A stretch of 5,044 nucleotides of DNA from IMG/VR virus record IMGVR_UViG_3300030250_000049, positions 1 to 5,044 of that record, one strand, 5' to 3'. Within the stretch, counting starts at the first letter, position 1, and the number at the start of each line of letters is the position of its first letter. Of the stretch, positions 1-5,044 are shown in pieces. A program made the position numbers and the translations under genes. The notes beneath the pieces were generated by a model. It was not told where the DNA came from, did not search any database, and was given only the letters and a program-made list of their open reading frames with translations. Source of the stretch: a virus.

Positions 1-77
1 TAAAGTTTCATAAAAAATACCTCTAAAAATTTCAAAATTTTCTGTCTACCATTTACTGACTATAATGCGCATTCTGT
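1..77. repeat. Terminal direct repeat: bases 1-77 are identical to 4968-5044. This is the circular-closure overlap of a 4967-nt circular genome.
   Basis: Direct comparison of the two ends shows an exact 77/77 match with period 4967. The repeat is direct, not inverted. ORF-A and its RBS run across the junction, so the window is a circle opened inside the ORF-A 5' region. Confidence 0.95.
38..66 (+). promoter_or_regulatory. Candidate antisense (+ strand) promoter: perfect -10 TATAAT at 61-66, AT-rich upstream region, weak -35.
   Basis: TATAAT is perfect. The best -35 is ttttct (3/6) at 17-bp spacing, with an A/T-rich UP-like tract at 25-40. It would drive a transcript of about 360 nt ending at the 415-436 terminator. 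Confidence 0.25.
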
Positions 78-99
78 TAATTTCGGCTCAACCATTCAA
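71..99 (-). promoter_or_regulatory. Candidate sigma70-like promoter for the minus-strand operon: -35 TTGAAT (99-94), 17-nt spacer, -10 CAGAAT (76-71), about 55 nt upstream of the ORF-A start (wrapped).
   Basis: Read from the minus strand: cattaaTTGAATggttgagccgaaattaaCAGAATgcg. Weak alternatives are TTGAGC (91-86) with CATTAT (67-62) at 18-nt spacing. This is the only place a promoter for the whole gene string can sit. Confidence 0.25.
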
Positions 100-214
100 T
101 TAATGCTTTAATTAACCGACGAGCAGGGGAGAGCCAAAGAATGAACAATAAACAAATAAAAGGCAACATCATTTCCATATCAAAATCATAGCATGATTTT
201 AAAACGGTGTCAAC

Positions 215-250
215 TGGCAATATTAACGACGAGAGCATACCATATTGCCA
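215..250. promoter_or_regulatory. 9-bp perfect inverted repeat (tggcaatat ... atattgcca) with an 18-nt loop in the only large intergenic region. Candidate origin / Rep-recognition or complementary-strand origin hairpin.
   Basis: Stem 215-223 pairs with 242-250; loop 224-241. It is immediately preceded on the + strand by caact (211-215), and the stem contains atattaa, loosely echoing the phiX174 origin core CAACTTGATATTAATAAC. It sits in non-coding DNA. Confidence 0.35.
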
Positions 251-260
251 CGTTGCCGAA

Positions 261-270
261 AAAAAAAACG
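261..270. repeat. A10 homopolymer (T10 on the virion/mRNA strand), flanked by gccg/cggc.
   Basis: Plain A10 run at 261-270 in the intergenic region. The flanking gccg and cggc are complementary. Confidence 0.9.
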
Positions 271-323
271 GCGCAGTTTACACACTTTCCCACAATCACC
301 ACACGTTTAATTCGTGCGCTCAT

Positions 324-339
324 GTGGAAAAGTGGAAAA
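324..339. repeat. Tandem direct repeat gtggaaaa x2 (iteron-like) in the intergenic region, followed by a polypyrimidine mirror repeat ctctctttctctc at 346-358.
   Basis: Exact 8-mer copies at 324-331 and 332-339. The CT-only mirror-symmetric tract begins a few bases downstream. Confidence 0.8.
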
Positions 340-377
340 CTGCGCCTCTCTTTCTCTCGGCACCGCTTCCGCTACGG

Positions 378-899
378 TCAGCCCTCAAGGGGCTTCGTTG
401 ACACCGTTTCACTTTCCGCCGTAGGCGGATTTTTTTCCGGGGTTTGAACAGTCGGTACATGTGGCGATTCATGTGCATCGCCCTGAAGCGTTCCACTATT
501 CAAACGTATAGATTCAAGCTCATCTTTAAGCTCATGGGCACGAGCCAACAAATCAGAACGGCTCATGAAAAGCATATCATCTTGCGGCAGCTGCTCATCA
601 GCTTTTGCAAGCTCTTCATAAATCGCTCTATACTGCGGCGAATGCTTGAAATCAAGAAGCCGCTCACCGTCTGCAATCATACGTTTAATCTGCTTGTCTA
701 ACGGTACATATCCAGCGTCATCCACTCGGCGGCGGTTATAAACCCAGTCTGATACACTGGGAGGAGCGATACATTTATCCCATGGAGAGCGAAATTTCTT
801 TTCATCTTGCACGGCAAAATCATATTCAATTTTCTTCGGCTGCTTCTTTTCAATTGTTTTTTCAAAAGCAAGTTCGGCAATGTCTTTTTCTTCATCCAT
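378..899 (-). CDS. VP3: Putative internal scaffolding protein (VP3-like), acidic, 173 aa from the ATG at 899. The ORF track starts it at 917 (179 aa).
   Basis: The ATG at 899-897 is preceded by GAGGAA with a 5-nt spacer that overlaps the VP1 stop (aTGTGAGGAAtttATG). The 917 start has no SD and would overlap VP1. The protein is highly charged and D/E-rich, its position is immediately after VP1, and its size fits VP3 of gokushoviruses. Product assignment is by position and composition, not by a motif I recognise. Confidence 0.5.
   Translation of the reverse strand: MDEEKDIAELAFEKTIEKKQPKKIEYDFAVQDEKKFRSPWDKCIAPPSVSDWVYNRRRVDDAGYVPLDKQIKRMIADGERLLDFKHSPQYRAIYEELAKADEQLPQDDMLFMSRSDLLARAHELKDELESIRLNSGTLQGDAHESPHVPTVQTPEKNPPTAESETVSTKPLEG
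415..436 (+). terminator. Intrinsic-terminator-shaped element on the + strand, antisense to all genes: GC-rich 6-bp stem tccgcc/ggcgga, 3-nt loop, then T7.
   Basis: Stem 415-420 pairs with 424-429, loop gta, and the T-run is 430-436. On the minus (coding) strand the same bases encode VP3 residues E-K-N-P-P-T-A-E and read as A7 followed by the hairpin. It therefore cannot terminate the genes' own transcripts. Confidence 0.4.
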
Positions 900-906
900 A
901 AATTCC

Positions 907-2589
907 TCACATATCATGATCCATTCGACCAGGCTCTGGGTAAGCTGTAATCGGTCTTACTGCGTCCAAAATCGTAGCGAACTGACAAATAATTCCTGGC
1001 TCTGACTGAACGGCATAAATCTTCTTTGATTCGCTAGGCTTGCATTCAATAAAATCAGCGTCCAGTTCCGGGCGGCTATCAAAATGACGGCTGAAATTCC
1101 AATATGCGTAAGTATCACGCATAGCACCACAAGCAAGACTTGTTCCGGCTCGCATTTCATTCCAACGACCTTGAAAACCCCAAATCTTGGTATCATCTTC
1201 AGTATTATCTACGTAAAGTTCACCGGCGTAAATTCCTTGCTCCGACAAATTACAAAGCTGAGGCAAATAGAAATCATAACGGCTTTTCTTAAACCACTGT
1301 CTATTTACGCCTTGAGTATAAAGCGGAGTAGGGCGGCAGAAAACAATACCAACAAGACAGCCATATTCCTCGGCAAAATACTTTCCAACATAATTCGAAG
1401 CAACTGAAATTCCATGTCCGGCTTGAGTACCCTGGGCGGAGCTATCAGTAGTCTGTGAAGTCTGCAAAACCTCATTAATTACTACTGGAACCTTTCTTGC
1501 ACCAATAAACTCCGGTCTTTGAAGTCTTGAATCCTTTGGAGAAACAGAGAAGAAAGAACGAAGATATTCAGTGTAACGGCTTCCAGTACGGTTAGCACGC
1601 TCAAGAATCTTCTGAATCTGGATGACTGTACGAAGCTCCGAAACGTCAAATGTAGTTGCGTCAGCAAGTTTAACAGATAACAAAGAAGTATCATCATCTT
1701 TAACTTTCAAATCACGAGGACTTAAAAAATAAACAGAACCGTCAGGACTACTAGCTTGCCACGCATACGAACGCTTATCACCGGAATTAGAACCAGTAGG
1801 AGAATAAGATAAATTTAAAAAATTTGTACCACTTGCCGGAAGTGGATCACCATTAGAAGAGCCAACTCGCTTATAATTAAACCAAACCGGCAACTCACCA
1901 CTAAGCGGCAAACTTGGCGCAATTCCTTTCTGCTGAGAGAGTAGAGCAGAAGTAAAATAGTCCTTTTTCCAAGCAACATTAAAAATTCCGTATTCCTCTT
2001 GGTCAACAGTAGTAGACGGAACAAGGGAATTGTCAAAATCACGCTTGGTAACCATTAATTTACGCTTACGCTGCAGATTCTCATCTCTGAACCACTCATT
2101 GTAAATGCTATGATAAGCACGGATAAAATAATCTGTACACATCTTAGCAATCGGAGAATTTGAAGTAAGACCAACAGGCAAACCGGCATAATCCATAAGA
2201 CTATACTTTTTTACAGTCTGAACATTAACGTCTGAAAAATTAGAGCCAATGCTAGGAAATGAATAGTCAAATGCAACCGGGTTTCCTTCTTCGTCCAGGT
2301 CTTCATCATCTCCGCCAGTAATTCCTCTCTCAAAATTGGGGTCAAGATTACGATAAGGCACAAAGAAATAAAAAGCCCAGAAATCCAATTTTCCCATAAC
2401 TGGACTAACAAGCGGCTTAAAACGGTTGATAACATTAAAGTAAATCTTGAAATTATCACCAGGAACCATATCACGAAATTCCACCGGAATAGCCTGGCCG
2501 ATGTCATAATCAAATGAACGCTCATCAACAAGAGTTCTTCTGGAACGCTTTGGAACTAAAGAGCGTATACTGTTAAATGGATCACTCAA
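907..2589 (-). CDS. VP1: Major capsid protein (VP1 / F-protein family), 560 aa, TTG start.
   Basis: This is the only ORF of its size in the window. The N-terminal region SFDYDIGQAIPVEFRDMVPGDNF...PLVSPVMGKLDFWAFYFFVPYR matches the conserved gokushovirus VP1 N-terminus (...SFD...PGD.F...P.MG..D.....FFVP.R). The start is the TTG at 2589-2587, preceded by GGAGGA with a 6-nt spacer (tttGGAGGAataaagTTG). The first in-frame ATG, at aa 41, would delete the conserved N-terminus. The stop TGA is at 909-907. Confidence 0.92.
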   Translation of the reverse strand: MSDPFNSIRSLVPKRSRRTLVDERSFDYDIGQAIPVEFRDMVPGDNFKIYFNVINRFKPLVSPVMGKLDFWAFYFFVPYRNLDPNFERGITGGDDEDLDEEGNPVAFDYSFPSIGSNFSDVNVQTVKKYSLMDYAGLPVGLTSNSPIAKMCTDYFIRAYHSIYNEWFRDENLQRKRKLMVTKRDFDNSLVPSTTVDQEEYGIFNVAWKKDYFTSALLSQQKGIAPSLPLSGELPVWFNYKRVGSSNGDPLPASGTNFLNLSYSPTGSNSGDKRSYAWQASSPDGSVYFLSPRDLKVKDDDTSLLSVKLADATTFDVSELRTVIQIQKILERANRTGSRYTEYLRSFFSVSPKDSRLQRPEFIGARKVPVVINEVLQTSQTTDSSAQGTQAGHGISVASNYVGKYFAEEYGCLVGIVFCRPTPLYTQGVNRQWFKKSRYDFYLPQLCNLSEQGIYAGELYVDNTEDDTKIWGFQGRWNEMRAGTSLACGAMRDTYAYWNFSRHFDSRPELDADFIECKPSESKKIYAVQSEPGIICQFATILDAVRPITAYPEPGRMDHDM

Positions 2590-3487
2590 CTTTATTCCTC
2601 CAAATAGTATTATTAAAACGGTAATTAATATTATGCTCTACCATGTTAGCCTGGTAAACATATTCCAACATATCCTCATTCACAACGGATTTAAACCGTC
2701 TTGAAATAGGGTCATAAAAACTATGAGATAAACCACGCTTGCGAGCTTCCGCAAATCTCTTGCGCCTATGCTCATGCGTCATACAAGTATAGTAATCTGT
2801 CAAAGAATCGCTAAAATGAGGCGGAAAAGCATGGCAAACCTTAAGTTTTTTCTTATAATAACGGGGTAGGGGCGCAACCTTACCACGCCACGGACAACCA
2901 TGGATTGACATAAGCCTGTCAAAATTAGCAATAAAATACTGGTAGCCTATACCCTGTGATTGCAGCTGAAAAGGCGGAATTCTTCCGGTTGTCGAATAAA
3001 CCGAATTAGGAACTTTTCCATAAAGCTTTTTCTGAATGTAACCGGCAACATAACTACACGTCTTTTGATTAACATCATCATAACTTTTTCCTTTACACCA
3101 AAAAAAATCAGCCTGATAAGTCCAGCATTTCTTGACTATCTCAACATCAGCTCTATCAATACCAAAAATAATTGCGTGATAATGAGGACGACCTTTTGTG
3201 CCATACTCACCACACGCAAAATACTTAATAAAGCGTCCATGCAAATTTTTTCGAAGCCTCTTAAAGAATTTCTGCAAGTCTGATTTAACCAAAGTAGCAT
3301 TTTCCGGCAAGAACTCCGGCGCATAAGTCAGAGTGATGAAAAGGGCTTTTCCGTGAAAACTCTCATACTCATGGAGCATACGGATTGCCCATTCTCGAAC
3401 ACGGTTTATACGGCAAGGCATACACCGACCGCAAGGAAATTCAAGACCACTTTTATCTTTATAAGGTTTCAAACAAATCATATACAA
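2582..3487 (-). CDS. VP4: Replication initiation protein (VP4; HUH rolling-circle endonuclease). 301 aa from the TTG at 3487, or 299 aa from the ATG at 3481.
   Basis: N-terminal Cys cluster PCGRCMPCR at aa 18-26. Motif I is FITLTY (aa 50-55). The HUH motif HYHAIIF is at aa 102-108 (nt 3184-3164). The double-Tyr catalytic motif SYVAGYIQKK (aa 145-154) matches the phiX174 gene A pattern YVAKYVNKK. The N-terminus MICLKPYK is typical of gokushovirus VP4. The stop TGA at 2584-2582 overlaps the VP1 start region by 8 nt. Confidence 0.92.
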   Translation of the reverse strand: MYMICLKPYKDKSGLEFPCGRCMPCRINRVREWAIRMLHEYESFHGKALFITLTYAPEFLPENATLVKSDLQKFFKRLRKNLHGRFIKYFACGEYGTKGRPHYHAIIFGIDRADVEIVKKCWTYQADFFWCKGKSYDDVNQKTCSYVAGYIQKKLYGKVPNSVYSTTGRIPPFQLQSQGIGYQYFIANFDRLMSIHGCPWRGKVAPLPRYYKKKLKVCHAFPPHFSDSLTDYYTCMTHEHRRKRFAEARKRGLSHSFYDPISRRFKSVVNEDMLEYVYQANMVEHNINYRFNNTIWRNKVE

Positions 3488-3495
3488 TCATATAC
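3476..3495. repeat. Perfect 10-bp tandem duplication (aatcatatac x2 on +; GTATATGATT x2 on the coding strand) spanning the J-like stop and the VP4 start.
   Basis: 3476-3485 equals 3486-3495. It places two ATGA motifs 10 nt apart: the first carries the J-like stop plus an out-of-frame decoy ATG (10 codons), and the second is the in-frame VP4 ATG. Confidence 0.85.
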
Positions 3496-3556
3496 GAATA
3501 CCACCACGTCCAACACGGACTGAATGAATCCGACGACCTCGGCGACGTCTACGCAT
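3488..3556 (-). CDS. 22-aa arginine-rich peptide (MRRRRRGRRIHSVRVGRGGIRI). Candidate DNA-binding/packaging protein analogous to phiX174 J or the gokushovirus ORF8/VP8.
   Basis: Perfect GGAGG at 3566-3562, a 5-nt spacer, then ATG at 3556-3554. Ten of 22 residues are Arg. The stop TGA at 3490-3488 is immediately followed by the VP4 TTG/ATG. The peptide sits between the capsid-associated genes and rep, consistent with a small basic DNA-condensing protein. Confidence 0.6.
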   Translation of the reverse strand: MRRRRRGRRIHSVRVGRGGIRI

Positions 3557-3557
3557 T

Positions 3558-3659
3558 CTAACCTCCTATAGAAGCAAACAAATCCAATAACATTTTGCCA
3601 ACAGTGACAACAATGTTAAGCACAACTGTACCAATAGTTATCTTGGTTTCCTTATTCAT
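3558..3659 (-). CDS. 33-aa single-pass transmembrane peptide (MNKETKITIGTVVLNIVVTVGKMLLDLFASIGG). It is not in the ORF track and is a candidate membrane/lysis-type protein.
   Basis: Perfect GGAGG at 3670-3666, a 6-nt spacer, then ATG at 3659-3657. That ATG overlaps the VP2 stop (ATGA). The peptide has a charged N-terminus (MNKETK) followed by about 26 hydrophobic residues. The stop TAG is at 3560-3558. It lies in an otherwise unexplained 168-nt gap between VP2 and VP4 and overlaps no other gene. Confidence 0.55.
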   Translation of the reverse strand: MNKETKITIGTVVLNIVVTVGKMLLDLFASIGG

Positions 3660-4513
3660 TTTTTACCTCCAAAACCAAATATAGATTTTCCGAGCTCACC
3701 AATAGACTCAAAAAAACCGCTAAGTCCATTCTTGACAGAATTAACAGCATTAGGAACACCAATGCCAACTGCATTATTGGCAGTCAAAAGGGGTAAACCC
3801 CATTGAGAACCATAAAGCTTAGACGGCTGAATACCGAATTTCTGATTATAAACTCTATCCCAATCAGAAAAATAAAGCTCATTATTCAAAATGTCAGTCT
3901 TATATTGCTGCGCCTTTATCTGATTCTCCTTAGTACGTTCAAGAATTTCATTACTAAAAGCTTGATTCTTATTTTTCAAATCAAGCCCATAATTCCGAAG
4001 CTTGTACCAATCGCCAGCATTCTCGCCAAATATCAGCTTATTAGCAGTATCGGCTTGGACATTCTTAGATTGATTCTGCAAATACTCAATTTCAGACTTT
4101 TGCCTATTAAGCTCACCAACTGCCTTCAAAGCGTCAAGACCGGCACCTATCATAGAACTAAGTCCATAAGTCGGCATAATCTTAGGCGAATAATCATTAT
4201 GCAAGGCTTGAGTTTCAATAGCCTGGCCGGCATTAGCGGCACTACCAGCGGCAAGGGTAGGACTAAGACCGGCAGCAACCAAATCATCTACACGTCTCCG
4301 GACTGCGTTATCCTCACGAGCAAAAATTTGTTTCTGCAAATCTTTCTGATACTGCAAGTTCTCATTCTGAAATTGCAAGTTCTGATTCGCAATATCTTTG
4401 TTCGCCTGGTTAGTCTTATCCGTATTGCGCATATTTCCTAAAGTGTCTATTAAACTAGACACTCCGGGAAGTGCGGCAGTAGCAATACTACCAATAGTTC
4501 CAAGAACAGACAT
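3656..4513 (-). CDS. VP2: Minor capsid / DNA pilot protein (VP2-like, 285 aa).
   Basis: Hydrophobic N-terminus (MSVLGTIGSIATAALPGV). A long Q/N/K-rich predicted coiled coil follows. The motif FAREDNAVRRRVDDLVAAGLSPTLA resembles the conserved (Q)R.V.D..AAGLNP block of gokushovirus VP2 proteins. The C-terminus is Gly-rich. GAGGA lies 9 nt upstream of the ATG. The stop TGA at 3658-3656 overlaps the next ATG as ATGA. Confidence 0.8.
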   Translation of the reverse strand: MSVLGTIGSIATAALPGVSSLIDTLGNMRNTDKTNQANKDIANQNLQFQNENLQYQKDLQKQIFAREDNAVRRRVDDLVAAGLSPTLAAGSAANAGQAIETQALHNDYSPKIMPTYGLSSMIGAGLDALKAVGELNRQKSEIEYLQNQSKNVQADTANKLIFGENAGDWYKLRNYGLDLKNKNQAFSNEILERTKENQIKAQQYKTDILNNELYFSDWDRVYNQKFGIQPSKLYGSQWGLPLLTANNAVGIGVPNAVNSVKNGLSGFFESIGELGKSIFGFGGKK

Positions 4514-4710
4514 TAGCCATTATCCTCATCAAAACCGAACTCTTGCTGAATTTCCTTTGAATAAGCTAATGAAACTTCTGCAACAGTCTGACGGCAAAGA
4601 AGCAATTCAGAAGCATTGTAATCATTGTGCTGCTTTTGTTCACAGTTAATCAAATAACGCTGCTGCTTATCCAACAACTGCAAAATATAAAACAAGTTCT
4701 TAGTCTTCAT
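4513..4710 (-). CDS. Hypothetical small protein ORF-B (65 aa, predicted helical, acidic C-terminus ...EFGFDEDNG). Its stop overlaps the VP2 start.
   Basis: The ATG at 4710-4708 is preceded by GGAG with a 7-nt spacer (ccGGAGttgcgtaATG). The track's TTG start at 4743 lacks an SD. The stop TAA at 4515-4513 overlaps the VP2 ATG as TAATG, which is translational coupling. Confidence 0.55.
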   Translation of the reverse strand: MKTKNLFYILQLLDKQQRYLINCEQKQHNDYNASELLLCRQTVAEVSLAYSKEIQQEFGFDEDNG

Positions 4711-4978
4711 TACGCAACTCCGGCAATAAATCAAGCATTTCAATCTCTTTTACAAGAATCCAATCAGAATGACTTTTTGAATCCTCTGGACAAACATTTC
4801 CATGTTCATATTCATAAATTGAAAATCCATCACGCAAGAAACCGGGTTTTCTTCCTTTTCCATTCTTCACATCTTCAAAGCAATCTTTAAAAGAACGCTC
4901 CAAAGTCGCTTCATTCTGCATAAAAAAACAACTTACATCTTCATTTGCAATTTGGTCATGTACTACATAAAGTTTCAT
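4700..4978 (-). CDS. Hypothetical small acidic protein ORF-A (92 aa from the ATG at 4978; the ORF track extends it to a TTG at 5002). First gene downstream of the intergenic region.
   Basis: The minus-strand ATG at 4978-4976 is preceded by GAGG with an 8-nt spacer (gaGAGGtattttttATG). The TTG at 5002 has no SD. The ORF is 93 codons with the acidic tail ...EIEMLDLLPELRNED. Its stop TAA at 4702-4700 lies 11 nt inside ORF-B. I recognise no family. Confidence 0.6.
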   Translation of the reverse strand: MKLYVVHDQIANEDVSCFFMQNEATLERSFKDCFEDVKNGKGRKPGFLRDGFSIYEYEHGNVCPEDSKSHSDWILVKEIEMLDLLPELRNED

Positions 4979-5044
4979 AAAAAATACCTCTAAAAATTTC
5001 AAAATTTTCTGTCTACCATTTACTGACTATAATGCGCATTCTGT
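4968..5044. repeat. Second copy of the terminal redundancy, identical to 1-77.
   Basis: Exact match to 1-77. Base 4967 (a) and base 78 (t) flank the repeat. Confidence 0.95.

Follow-up and report, generated by a model that had tools for sequence, protein, structure and literature searches.

Probable integrase-free lysogeny of a gokushovirus-like microvirus at a dif-like site of gut Treponema

Is the microvirus held in IMG/VR record IMGVR_UViG_3300030250_000049 a free circular phage, or does it also live in a chromosome and, if so, in that of which host? We addressed this question with the whole stretch of DNA available for that record (positions 1 to 5,044, a length of 5,044 nucleotides [nt], here called the window). 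A preliminary description made from the letters alone had taken the window for a closed circle and not a chromosomal segment, with a non-canonical gene order that suggested a distinct lineage. We found instead that the same genome is integrated in chromosomal contigs of Treponema, and we consider it very probable that the window represents a temperate gokushovirus-like microvirus of gut Treponema, known here from sequences alone, that targets dif and reaches lysogeny through the host Xer recombinases without an integrase of its own.

The exact terminal redundancy of 77 nt with a period of 4,967, noted in the preliminary description, was borne out, and the window contains no second long repeat. 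We concluded that the window is a complete phage genome of 4,967 nt and that the 77-nt repeat marks the closure of the unit. The same phage-phage junction is found, 100% identical, in four other contigs of independent assemblies (L032, L033, L034 and L036; such handles denote individual contigs or genomes throughout) and is therefore not an artefact of one assembly. The length of the overlap equals a k value of SPAdes (k=77). What the overlap proves is a phage-phage junction only, and a tandem prophage would give the same.

The chromosomal state came to light through the open reading frame (ORF) of 173 amino acids (aa) that follows the capsid gene VP1. Homologues of this ORF (74 to 94% identical) lie on contigs of up to 306 kb, one of which is named Treponema succinifaciens by NCBI, and in L008-L014, L031-L035 and L037 the same seven-gene block stands in the same order between a radical-SAM/DUF2344 gene and mfd. 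The relatives of the flanking gene belong to metagenome-assembled genomes (MAGs) of Treponema or Spirochaetales. The 4,967-nt unit of the window is 100.000% identical (0 mismatches) to the copies integrated in L031-L035, so that the earlier statement “closed circle, not chromosomal segment” did not hold.

The junctions are exact. At attL, host sequence (…TTTTAGTAG) meets a 23-nt core (ACAGAATGCGCATTATAGTCAGT) followed by phage sequence (AAATGGTAG…); at attR, phage sequence (…CGAAATTA) meets the same core followed by host sequence (TGTGT…); and in attP of the window (55-77 and again 5022-5044) the core ACAGAATGCGCATTATAGTCAGT stands between the two phage flanks, …CGAAATTA and AAATGGTAG…. Read as 28-mers, attL is the host site and attR the phage site. 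Empty attB sites are present in reference Treponema MAGs and in five metagenome contigs with flanks 98 to 99.7% identical to those of the lysogen, which read exactly host-left, 28-mer, host-right. Exact junctions together with empty sites show that the element inserts precisely and is polymorphic within the host species, and another prophage variant (78 to 86% identical) occupies the same site in L051. We concluded that the phage integrates in the chromosomes of gut Treponema of the T. succinifaciens group. A tRNA-type attachment site was considered and rejected, the nearest tRNA being more than 5 kb away.

Two observations on individual contigs may be recorded here. L037 carries a 31-nt insertion (AGTTTTGCACAACCTGGTTGTGCATAACTTT, L037 4875-4905) between the stop codon of a small ORF next to attP and the att core, and this insertion holds an inverted repeat resembling the host flank to the right of attB (…GTTGTGCATG…). 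L019 (CAVKBG010000043.1), labelled “Desulfovibrionaceae bacterium,” holds the radical-SAM locus of Treponema (94% identical at the protein level) together with the dif motif of that genus and was probably binned wrongly.

No integrase or recombinase domain was detected in any ORF of the window (Pfam, PHROGs). Under the mechanism that we propose, attP and the 28-bp host site would undergo conservative site-specific recombination. Insertion restores a site of host type at attL and one of phage type at attR; because both are regenerated, insertion should be reversible. Phage and host sites have in common the XerC-type arm, the spacer and 6 nt of the XerD-type arm, and only the outer 5 nt of this last arm distinguish one from the other. 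XerCD/dif integration has been shown experimentally for the enterogokushovirus EC6098 (Kirchberger & Ochman 2020, eLife, PMC7062461). Judging from the architecture of the sites, integration via the host Xer recombinases is the most likely route for the phage of the window.

The identity of the host 28-mer was assessed with a log-odds matrix built from 26 non-Treponema dif sites, 24 of them from the supplement to Kono 2011 and the other two those of E. coli and B. subtilis. It ranks the host motif first in seven of the seven loci (~20 kb) that carry it, in the exact 28-bp register and in a consistent orientation, with 9 to 17 bits. The XerD-type arm matches the published dif of Leptospira chromosome II at 9 of 11 positions, and across Treponema species the motif has been conserved although the sequences on either side of it diverge; in L018 it keeps its polarity though the flanks are swapped. 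We infer from these features that the host 28-mer is the chromosomal dif. Other points are mixed or weigh against this reading. The matrix ranks attP first of ~10,000 positions in the window, at 11.3 bits (next independent site, 2.0), but 8.2% of shuffled windows reach that score, which is not significant alone; its weight lies in its coincidence with an independently mapped crossover. GC skew drops by ~0.12 across the site in every locus, but this evidence for a terminus covers ~10 kb per side, is confounded by gene orientation and is suggestive only. The spacer TGCGCA is unusual for dif, and Treponema is not among the genomes of the Kono 2011 dif predictions.

Two other accounts of the integration have to be set against these data. 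The host 28-mer might be a conserved intergenic element other than dif, such as a regulatory sequence or a site on which an unlinked host tyrosine recombinase acts, as the lack of a published Treponema dif for comparison, the weakness of the terminus evidence and the moderate size of the matrix scores would allow; we think this improbable in view of the top matrix rank, exact register and consistent orientation at all seven loci, the likeness of the arms to published spirochaete dif sites, and the converging gene orientation and skew shift at the site, which persist with the flanks inverted in L018. Alternatively, integration might be real and independent of Xer, being brought about by the HUH-type replication initiator (Rep) at an origin-like sequence or by host homologous recombination on the 23-nt identity. 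Rep is indeed the only DNA-processing enzyme that the phage encodes, and the atypical spacer fits this account too, but both junctions regenerate complete 28-mers of 11-6-11 dif architecture, the crossover core is exactly alike in at least five diverged prophage lineages, an identity of 23 nt is short by the standards of RecA-dependent recombination, Treponema species free of the prophage also conserve the host site, which so points to a host function, and Xer use by a gokushovirus has the experimental precedent of EC6098. We therefore give this account, too, little credence. In two Treponema species (L018, 12720-12747, and L029, 12771-12798), the dif-like site is inverted relative to the radical-SAM gene, as would be expected after an inversion across the replication terminus.

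The state of the phage DNA behind the window itself is a separate matter. At one extreme stands a free, closed-circular and purely lytic microvirus with no chromosomal phase, the rearranged gene order of which would mark a new lineage. The exact 77-nt overlap, a VP1 no more than 40% identical to that of GenBank phages, and L036, an unbranched cycle suggesting that the circular or tandem junction was dominant in its sample, all agree with it, but it is scarcely tenable and, as an exclusive statement, is refuted by the identical genome with host flanks on both sides in L031-L035. Nearly identical hosts have empty sites, chimeric host-phage junctions are implausible because at least six independent assemblies have identical ones, the gene order is a published variant, seen in the nearest relatives, and VP4 running into VP1 is classical. 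At the other extreme, the window might come from a lysogen, as a tandem prophage collapsed into one unit or as a loop of the assembly graph, with no extrachromosomal circle. Two-copy contigs with host flanks (L013/L014, L032, L033 and L034) favor this, as does the end of the window repeat exactly at the att core boundary, where, if assemblers behave as we suppose, the phage-phage and phage-host paths of a k=77 graph diverge; this end suggests that host-junction reads were present in the source sample. Short-read assemblers cannot count identical 5-kb copies, though, and a prophage plus free circles gives the same graph; replicating microviruses necessarily form circles; and L036 (~5 kb, with a 30-nt overlap) suggests that phage-phage junctions dominated in that run, far above host junctions. 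A tandem without any free circle is thus conceivable but, in our judgment, rather unlikely. It must also be entered on the debit side of our reading that the two-copy contigs L013 and L032-L034 could be loop traversals by the assembler over a single prophage plus free circles, which makes tandem integration a possibility only. Free circle and tandem prophage probably both occur, and the window alone is compatible with either.

In two Logan contigs of ~5 kb, L015 and L038, both ends fall precisely on the att core, the termini overlapping by 23 and 21 nt. Ends at the core mean that the assembly graph breaks there, a trace left in those samples by paths that continue either into the host or into the phage.

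The closest known parallel is EC6098, which, like the window, has a small gokushovirus-type genome without an integrase and a dif motif in its noncoding region, and whose prophage is likewise bordered by one dif of host type and one of phage type, the latter differing mainly in the XerD arm. Its integration is reversible in principle, and the same is expected of the phage described here. The two differ in that XerCD dependence was shown by experiment for EC6098 and is read from the pattern of sequences for the window, and in their hosts, Enterobacteriaceae for the former and Spirochaetota for the latter. The window further differs from the enterogokushoviruses in a VP1 only 25 to 29% identical to that of classical Gokushovirinae, in having no recognizable VP3, in the position of VP5 before VP2 and in a small membrane ORF that abuts attP.

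The integrative mobile elements exploiting Xer (IMEX) of Vibrio (CTXphi, VGJphi and TLCphi), in which tandem arrays are common, are likewise single-stranded DNA (ssDNA) phages that lack an integrase and rely on host XerCD at dif. These are filamentous Inoviridae, and the attP of CTXphi is formed by folded ssDNA of two inverted sites. A double attP of the CTXphi type was rejected for the window, which has one complete site and an 11-nt half-site in direct orientation. This half-site (GGTAGACAGAA, identical to the host-type XerD arm) has two matches against 0.03 expected by chance and is kept in L038, the most divergent prophage; it could be an accessory XerD-binding site or a scar of the acquisition of the dif module. 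Separately, a rodent gut phage (L004; PQ006660.1, bajarodmic virus 498), the cyclic gene order of which is VP1-VP4-VP2, carries a very strong dif-like 28-mer (ATGTCGCATAATATATATTATGTGTAAA, 4335-4362, 26.2 bits) in the stretch that separates VP2 from the VP8-type peptide and is probably temperate as well, in a different host.

Table 1. Features of the 5,044-nt window and the corresponding host site
Feature	Position (nt)	Strand	Remarks
Terminal redundancy	1-77 = 4968-5044	.	77 nt, 100% identical, spacing 4967
Extra host-type XerD-arm half-site, GGTAGACAGAA	40-50 (also 5007-5017)	-	4 nt beyond XerC-type arm, direct orientation
attP, 28-bp dif-like site	55-82	+	ACTGACTATAA-TGCGCA-TTCTGTTAATT (XerC-type arm, spacer, XerD-type arm); 55-77, 23-nt core
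Host site, in the sense of the window + strand			ACTGACTATAA-TGCGCA-TTCTGTCTACT; 11-6-11 dif architecture
Candidate dif sequence for Treponema			ACTGACTATAATGCGCATTCTGTCTACT
Membrane-type ORF, 33 aa, MEMMLPFICLLFILWLSPARRLIKALIEWLSRN	77-178	-	33-35 aa in relatives; stop codon overlaps first att core base
Best sigma-70-type promoter in the window	185-213	-	TTGACA-17 nt-TATGAT, extended -10 TG; 11/12 matches
Stem-loop, GGCAATAT...ATATTGCC	215-250	-	Conserved loop CTCTCGTCGTT; abuts -35 element
Long conserved hairpin, 106 nt, then T10 run	256-361	-	dG (free energy) -79.5 kcal/mol, z = -10.6
Acidic protein, 173 aa	378-899	-	Clade-specific; isoelectric point 4.96
VP1 major capsid protein, 560 aa	907-2589	-	Phage_F (PF02305) E=1.4e-85; phrog_514 E=8.7e-128
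VP4 rolling-circle replication initiator (Rep), 299 aa	2582-3481	-	PF23343 E=3.5e-21; phrog_942 E=8.1e-70
Tandem duplication of 10 nt, GTATATGATT x2	3476-3495	-	Separates VP8 stop from Rep ATG
VP8/ORF8-type arginine-rich putative DNA-binding peptide, 22 aa	3488-3556	-	Own GGAGG ribosome-binding site
Transmembrane peptide, 33 aa, between VP2 and VP8	3558-3659	-	Very strongly conserved
VP2 DNA pilot protein, 285 aa	3656-4513	-	phrog_11693 E=1.7e-9 and several further pilot-protein PHROGs
ORF-B, conserved protein, 65 aa	4513-4710	-	Length constant at 198 nt in every relative; more synonymous than nonsynonymous changes
ORF-A, divergent VP5, 92 aa	4700-4978	-	Starts at ATG with GAGG ahead

Every ORF of any size lies on the minus strand, and the co-oriented series given in the preliminary description (ORF-A, ORF-B, VP2, transmembrane peptide, arginine-rich peptide, VP4, VP1, the 173-aa ORF and an intergenic region) is present where it had been placed (Table 1). 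The gokushovirus-like content of VP1, VP2 and VP4 was likewise confirmed, and only the label “VP3-like” had to be dropped, no homology to VP3 being detectable. The translation of Rep contains the HUH motif HYHAII and the tyrosine pair YVAGY, and the end of its gene overlaps the start of VP1. Within VP2 there is a 21-nt tandem repeat (4341-4382) encoding two heptads, NQNLQFQ and NENLQYQ, as is typical of the coiled coil of pilot proteins.

The smaller genes required closer comparison with relatives, among which L044 (Logan DRR596601 contig, 4415 nt) is a more distant one with a VP1 54% identical to that of the window and the same gene order. ORF-A is a divergent VP5: its match to Pfam Phage_ORF5 (PF20577) is sub-threshold (E=1.7e-3), but it aligns with VP5 of Chp2 and phiMH2K through the N-terminal pattern MK[LV][YF]x[VI]xD…FFMQ…R[SA]F, and its counterpart at the same position in L044 gives a full Phage_ORF5 match. 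ORF-B has a counterpart of 63 aa in L044 and matches no family in Pfam or PHROGs. In each of six comparisons the 33-aa transmembrane peptide between VP2 and VP8 shows 0 nonsynonymous against 2 to 9 synonymous changes, and it is therefore a real gene. The arginine-rich peptide, to judge by its C terminus, corresponds to VP8/ORF8: it ends in GRGGIRI, compared with MRGGIRF in ORF8 of Chp2, MRGGIRL in the J-like peptide of phiMH2K and …VSRGGIR[LF] in the peptides of gut relatives, and every Treponema prophage relative keeps it. The diverged relatives all carry only one GTATATGATT copy, and there the VP8 stop codon TGA overlaps the ATG of Rep; the duplication thus uncouples the VP8 and Rep genes in this strain. 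The idea that the arginine-rich ORF is frameshifted in relatives was rejected, as this appearance is caused by the 10-nt duplication downstream and the peptide is conserved.

Does the gene order set this phage apart, as had been proposed? We judged order cyclically, bearing in mind that three co-oriented genes on a circle have only two possible orders. The window reads VP1-173 aa-[noncoding]-VP5-ORF-B-VP2-TM33-VP8-VP4 (TM33, the 33-aa transmembrane peptide), Chp2 reads VP1-VP2-VP3-ORF8-VP4-VP5, and phiMH2K reads VP1-VP2-VP3-VP5-J-VP4 with a VP4 (3651..4) that overlaps the start of VP1. Suborder III is described as “almost exclusively ordered VP1-VP2-VP4,” with a variable location of VP3, and its Family 3 as showing all possible orders (Kirchberger et al. 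2022), and the Sukshmavirinae were defined in 2018 on the layout VP1-ORF1-VP2-VP4-ORF2, in which ORF2 is VP5-like (Tikhe & Husseneder 2018, PMC5759034). The nearest GenBank relatives of the window (OR149008, MK765576 and MG945468) have VP1-hyp-VP2-VP8-VP4-VP5 (hyp, hypothetical protein), and genomes of Family 11 and Family 12 have VP4-VP1-hyp-(hyp)-VP2. The order VP1 to VP2 to VP4 is thus canonical, the Sukshmavirinae were already published with an additional ORF separating VP1 from VP2, and the position of VP4 directly upstream of VP1, which had been taken as unusual, is classical and seen in phiMH2K, so that the “non-canonical order” largely dissolves into an effect of linearization (the cut point of the circle) combined with a published variant. 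The sole unusual point is the position of VP5 after the noncoding region and before ORF-B and VP2; it is shared with L044 and is therefore a trait of the clade. Gene-order “rearrangements” in circular genomes evidently need to be judged cyclically and against current literature that is broader than the classical phages.

The 173-aa ORF, which had been labelled VP3-like, failed every homology test for that identity. It gave no match to Chlamy_scaf or to any other Pfam or PHROG family; indeed, no ORF of the window matched Chlamy_scaf, for which genuine VP3s score E ~1e-40. A profile of its family compared with a 24-sequence VP3 profile gave an hhalign probability of 0.06%, tblastn gave marginal matches only, and an exhaustive phmmer search of 1.84 billion representatives found homologues in only five clusters, none of them VP3. 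The AlphaFold model is helical and of low confidence (pLDDT, predicted local distance difference test, 64), and a Foldseek search of BFVD with it returned nothing at E ≤ 1e-3. The ORF shares the motif V[ED]xAGY[IV]P…KQI…G..L with the same-position ORFs of the nearest GenBank relatives. A motif likeness to VP3 in a mixed MAFFT alignment was not upheld by profile-profile and other homology tests. From its position and by elimination only, the protein is possibly a scaffolding protein that stands in for the missing VP3.

The noncoding region of ~380 nt holds, in order after the 173-aa ORF, a hairpin, a stem-loop, a promoter, the small membrane ORF, attP and the half-site, followed by VP5. The preliminary description had treated it as intergenic, but a conserved 33-aa ORF lies within it. 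The hairpin (47 pairs, 7 of them with compensatory changes across seven genomes) is probably the transcription terminator of the gene block and/or the complementary-strand origin of the ssDNA genome. In L044 the stem of the stem-loop differs yet remains complementary (GGCATAGT/ACTATGCC) and the loop is kept, which makes this element a candidate Rep nicking origin or operator. No Rfam family was found in the window. The promoter, which L044 and all the other relatives retain, is directed through attP into the gene block. Its -10 hexamer, TATGAT, ends 6 nt ahead of the ATG of the small membrane ORF (176-190, minus strand), so that the predicted transcription start falls on or beside the A of the ATG, suggesting that the mRNA of this ORF is leaderless. 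The frame of the small ORF (pattern M.M.LPFI…SPARRLIKALIEWL.RN; grand average of hydropathy, 0.95) is kept in six relatives, where indel lengths are divisible by 3 and changes within the C-terminal half are mostly synonymous, and its product is a candidate lysis or membrane protein. L044 has the hairpin, stem-loop and promoter and is without both the small ORF and the dif-like site, so that the lysogeny module looks like an insertion in this sub-lineage. L044 is likely a nonintegrating sister lineage and as such useful for dating the gain of lysogeny.

The placement of attP between the sole strong promoter and the gene block raises the possibility that dif integration serves as a lysogeny switch without a repressor, an idea that we put forward as speculative and on balance doubtful. 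In the integrated state the promoter stands at the attR end and points outward, and the phage genes lie behind a host operon with no terminator between them. Insertion would thus leave the phage genes promoterless behind that operon, and a circle or a head-to-tail tandem would rejoin promoter and genes. In a chromosomal tandem, Rep could also roll off unit-length ssDNA between two origins, in the manner of CTXphi, without excision.

As to lineage, VP1 is at most ~40% identical to that of any of 3,563 matching GenBank phage records. Identities are 80 to 85% with the Treponema prophage relatives, 37 to 40% with a gut/saliva clade, 28.6% with Chp2, 29.4% with phiMH2K, 25.5% with SpV4, and 22 to 27% with Families 10-12, and a rough neighbor-joining tree of VP1 places the window within Gokushovirinae sensu lato, beside the gut/saliva clade. 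Searched at the nucleotide level, GenBank phages yielded no more than a 36-nt match, and IMG/VR, scanned with VP1 and the attP 28-mer, gave no match. The proposal of a distinct lineage therefore stands on divergence, at what the sequences support as about genus to subfamily level. The features of Microviridae/Gokushovirinae sensu lato (Suborder III) are present (a Phage_F VP1, an HUH Rep, a VP8 with RGGIR[LFI], cyclic VP1-VP2-VP4 and a size of ~4 to 6 kb). [quoted passage not shown]

Of the classical phages, phiMH2K and Chp2 share with the window the cyclic order VP1 to VP2 to VP4, a VP8/J-like RGGIR[LF] peptide directly upstream of VP4 and the N-terminal motif of VP5, and phiMH2K also a VP4 that runs into VP1; they differ from it in carrying VP3 (Chlamy_scaf) after VP2, where the window has an unrelated 173-aa ORF after VP1, and in being lytic and without a strong dif-like site. 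The Sukshmavirinae of the termite gut, likened here by their published layout, resemble the window in having a clade-specific ORF between VP1 and VP2, followed by VP4, together with a VP5-like ORF, and in their predicted spirochaete host, and the nearest GenBank relatives of the window carry a layout of this type. In the Sukshmavirinae, however, VP5 follows VP4, so that the position of ORF2 that defines them is not the one found here, and no prophage state or dif site has been described for them. Table S4 of Kirchberger et al. 2022 lists “Family 9 – Spirochetes (Treponema)” and “Shukshmavirinae – CRISPR predicts Spirochaetes.” Family 9, compared here by description only, is likewise Treponema-associated and is the sister of Family 3 within Gokushovirinae sensu lato, and our lineage may already be catalogued in Family 9 or Sukshmavirinae.

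For most gut microviruses the host is unknown, and the few spirochaete associations reported were set aside as possible binning errors, being single contigs in fragmented MAGs (Kirchberger et al. 2022). Here the link between phage and host is physical, the genome being embedded in Treponema chromosomal contigs of 44 to 306 kb with exact junctions and matching empty sites, and a microvirus lineage is thereby linked to the T. succinifaciens group, a culturable taxon typical of non-industrialized human guts. We found no dedicated description of microvirus prophages of Treponema or other spirochaetes in the literature. Integrase-free gokushoviruses that exploit Xer are already known; what is new is a host phylum from which only uncertain associations had been reported, and integrase-free, dif-targeted lysogeny of gokushovirus-like phages is thereby extended beyond the Enterobacteriaceae. 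The analysis also supplies a candidate dif sequence for Treponema, a genus that published dif surveys did not cover. If the proposed switch is real, this phage would provide the first physically established microvirus lysogeny in Spirochaetota, with a topological on/off mechanism.

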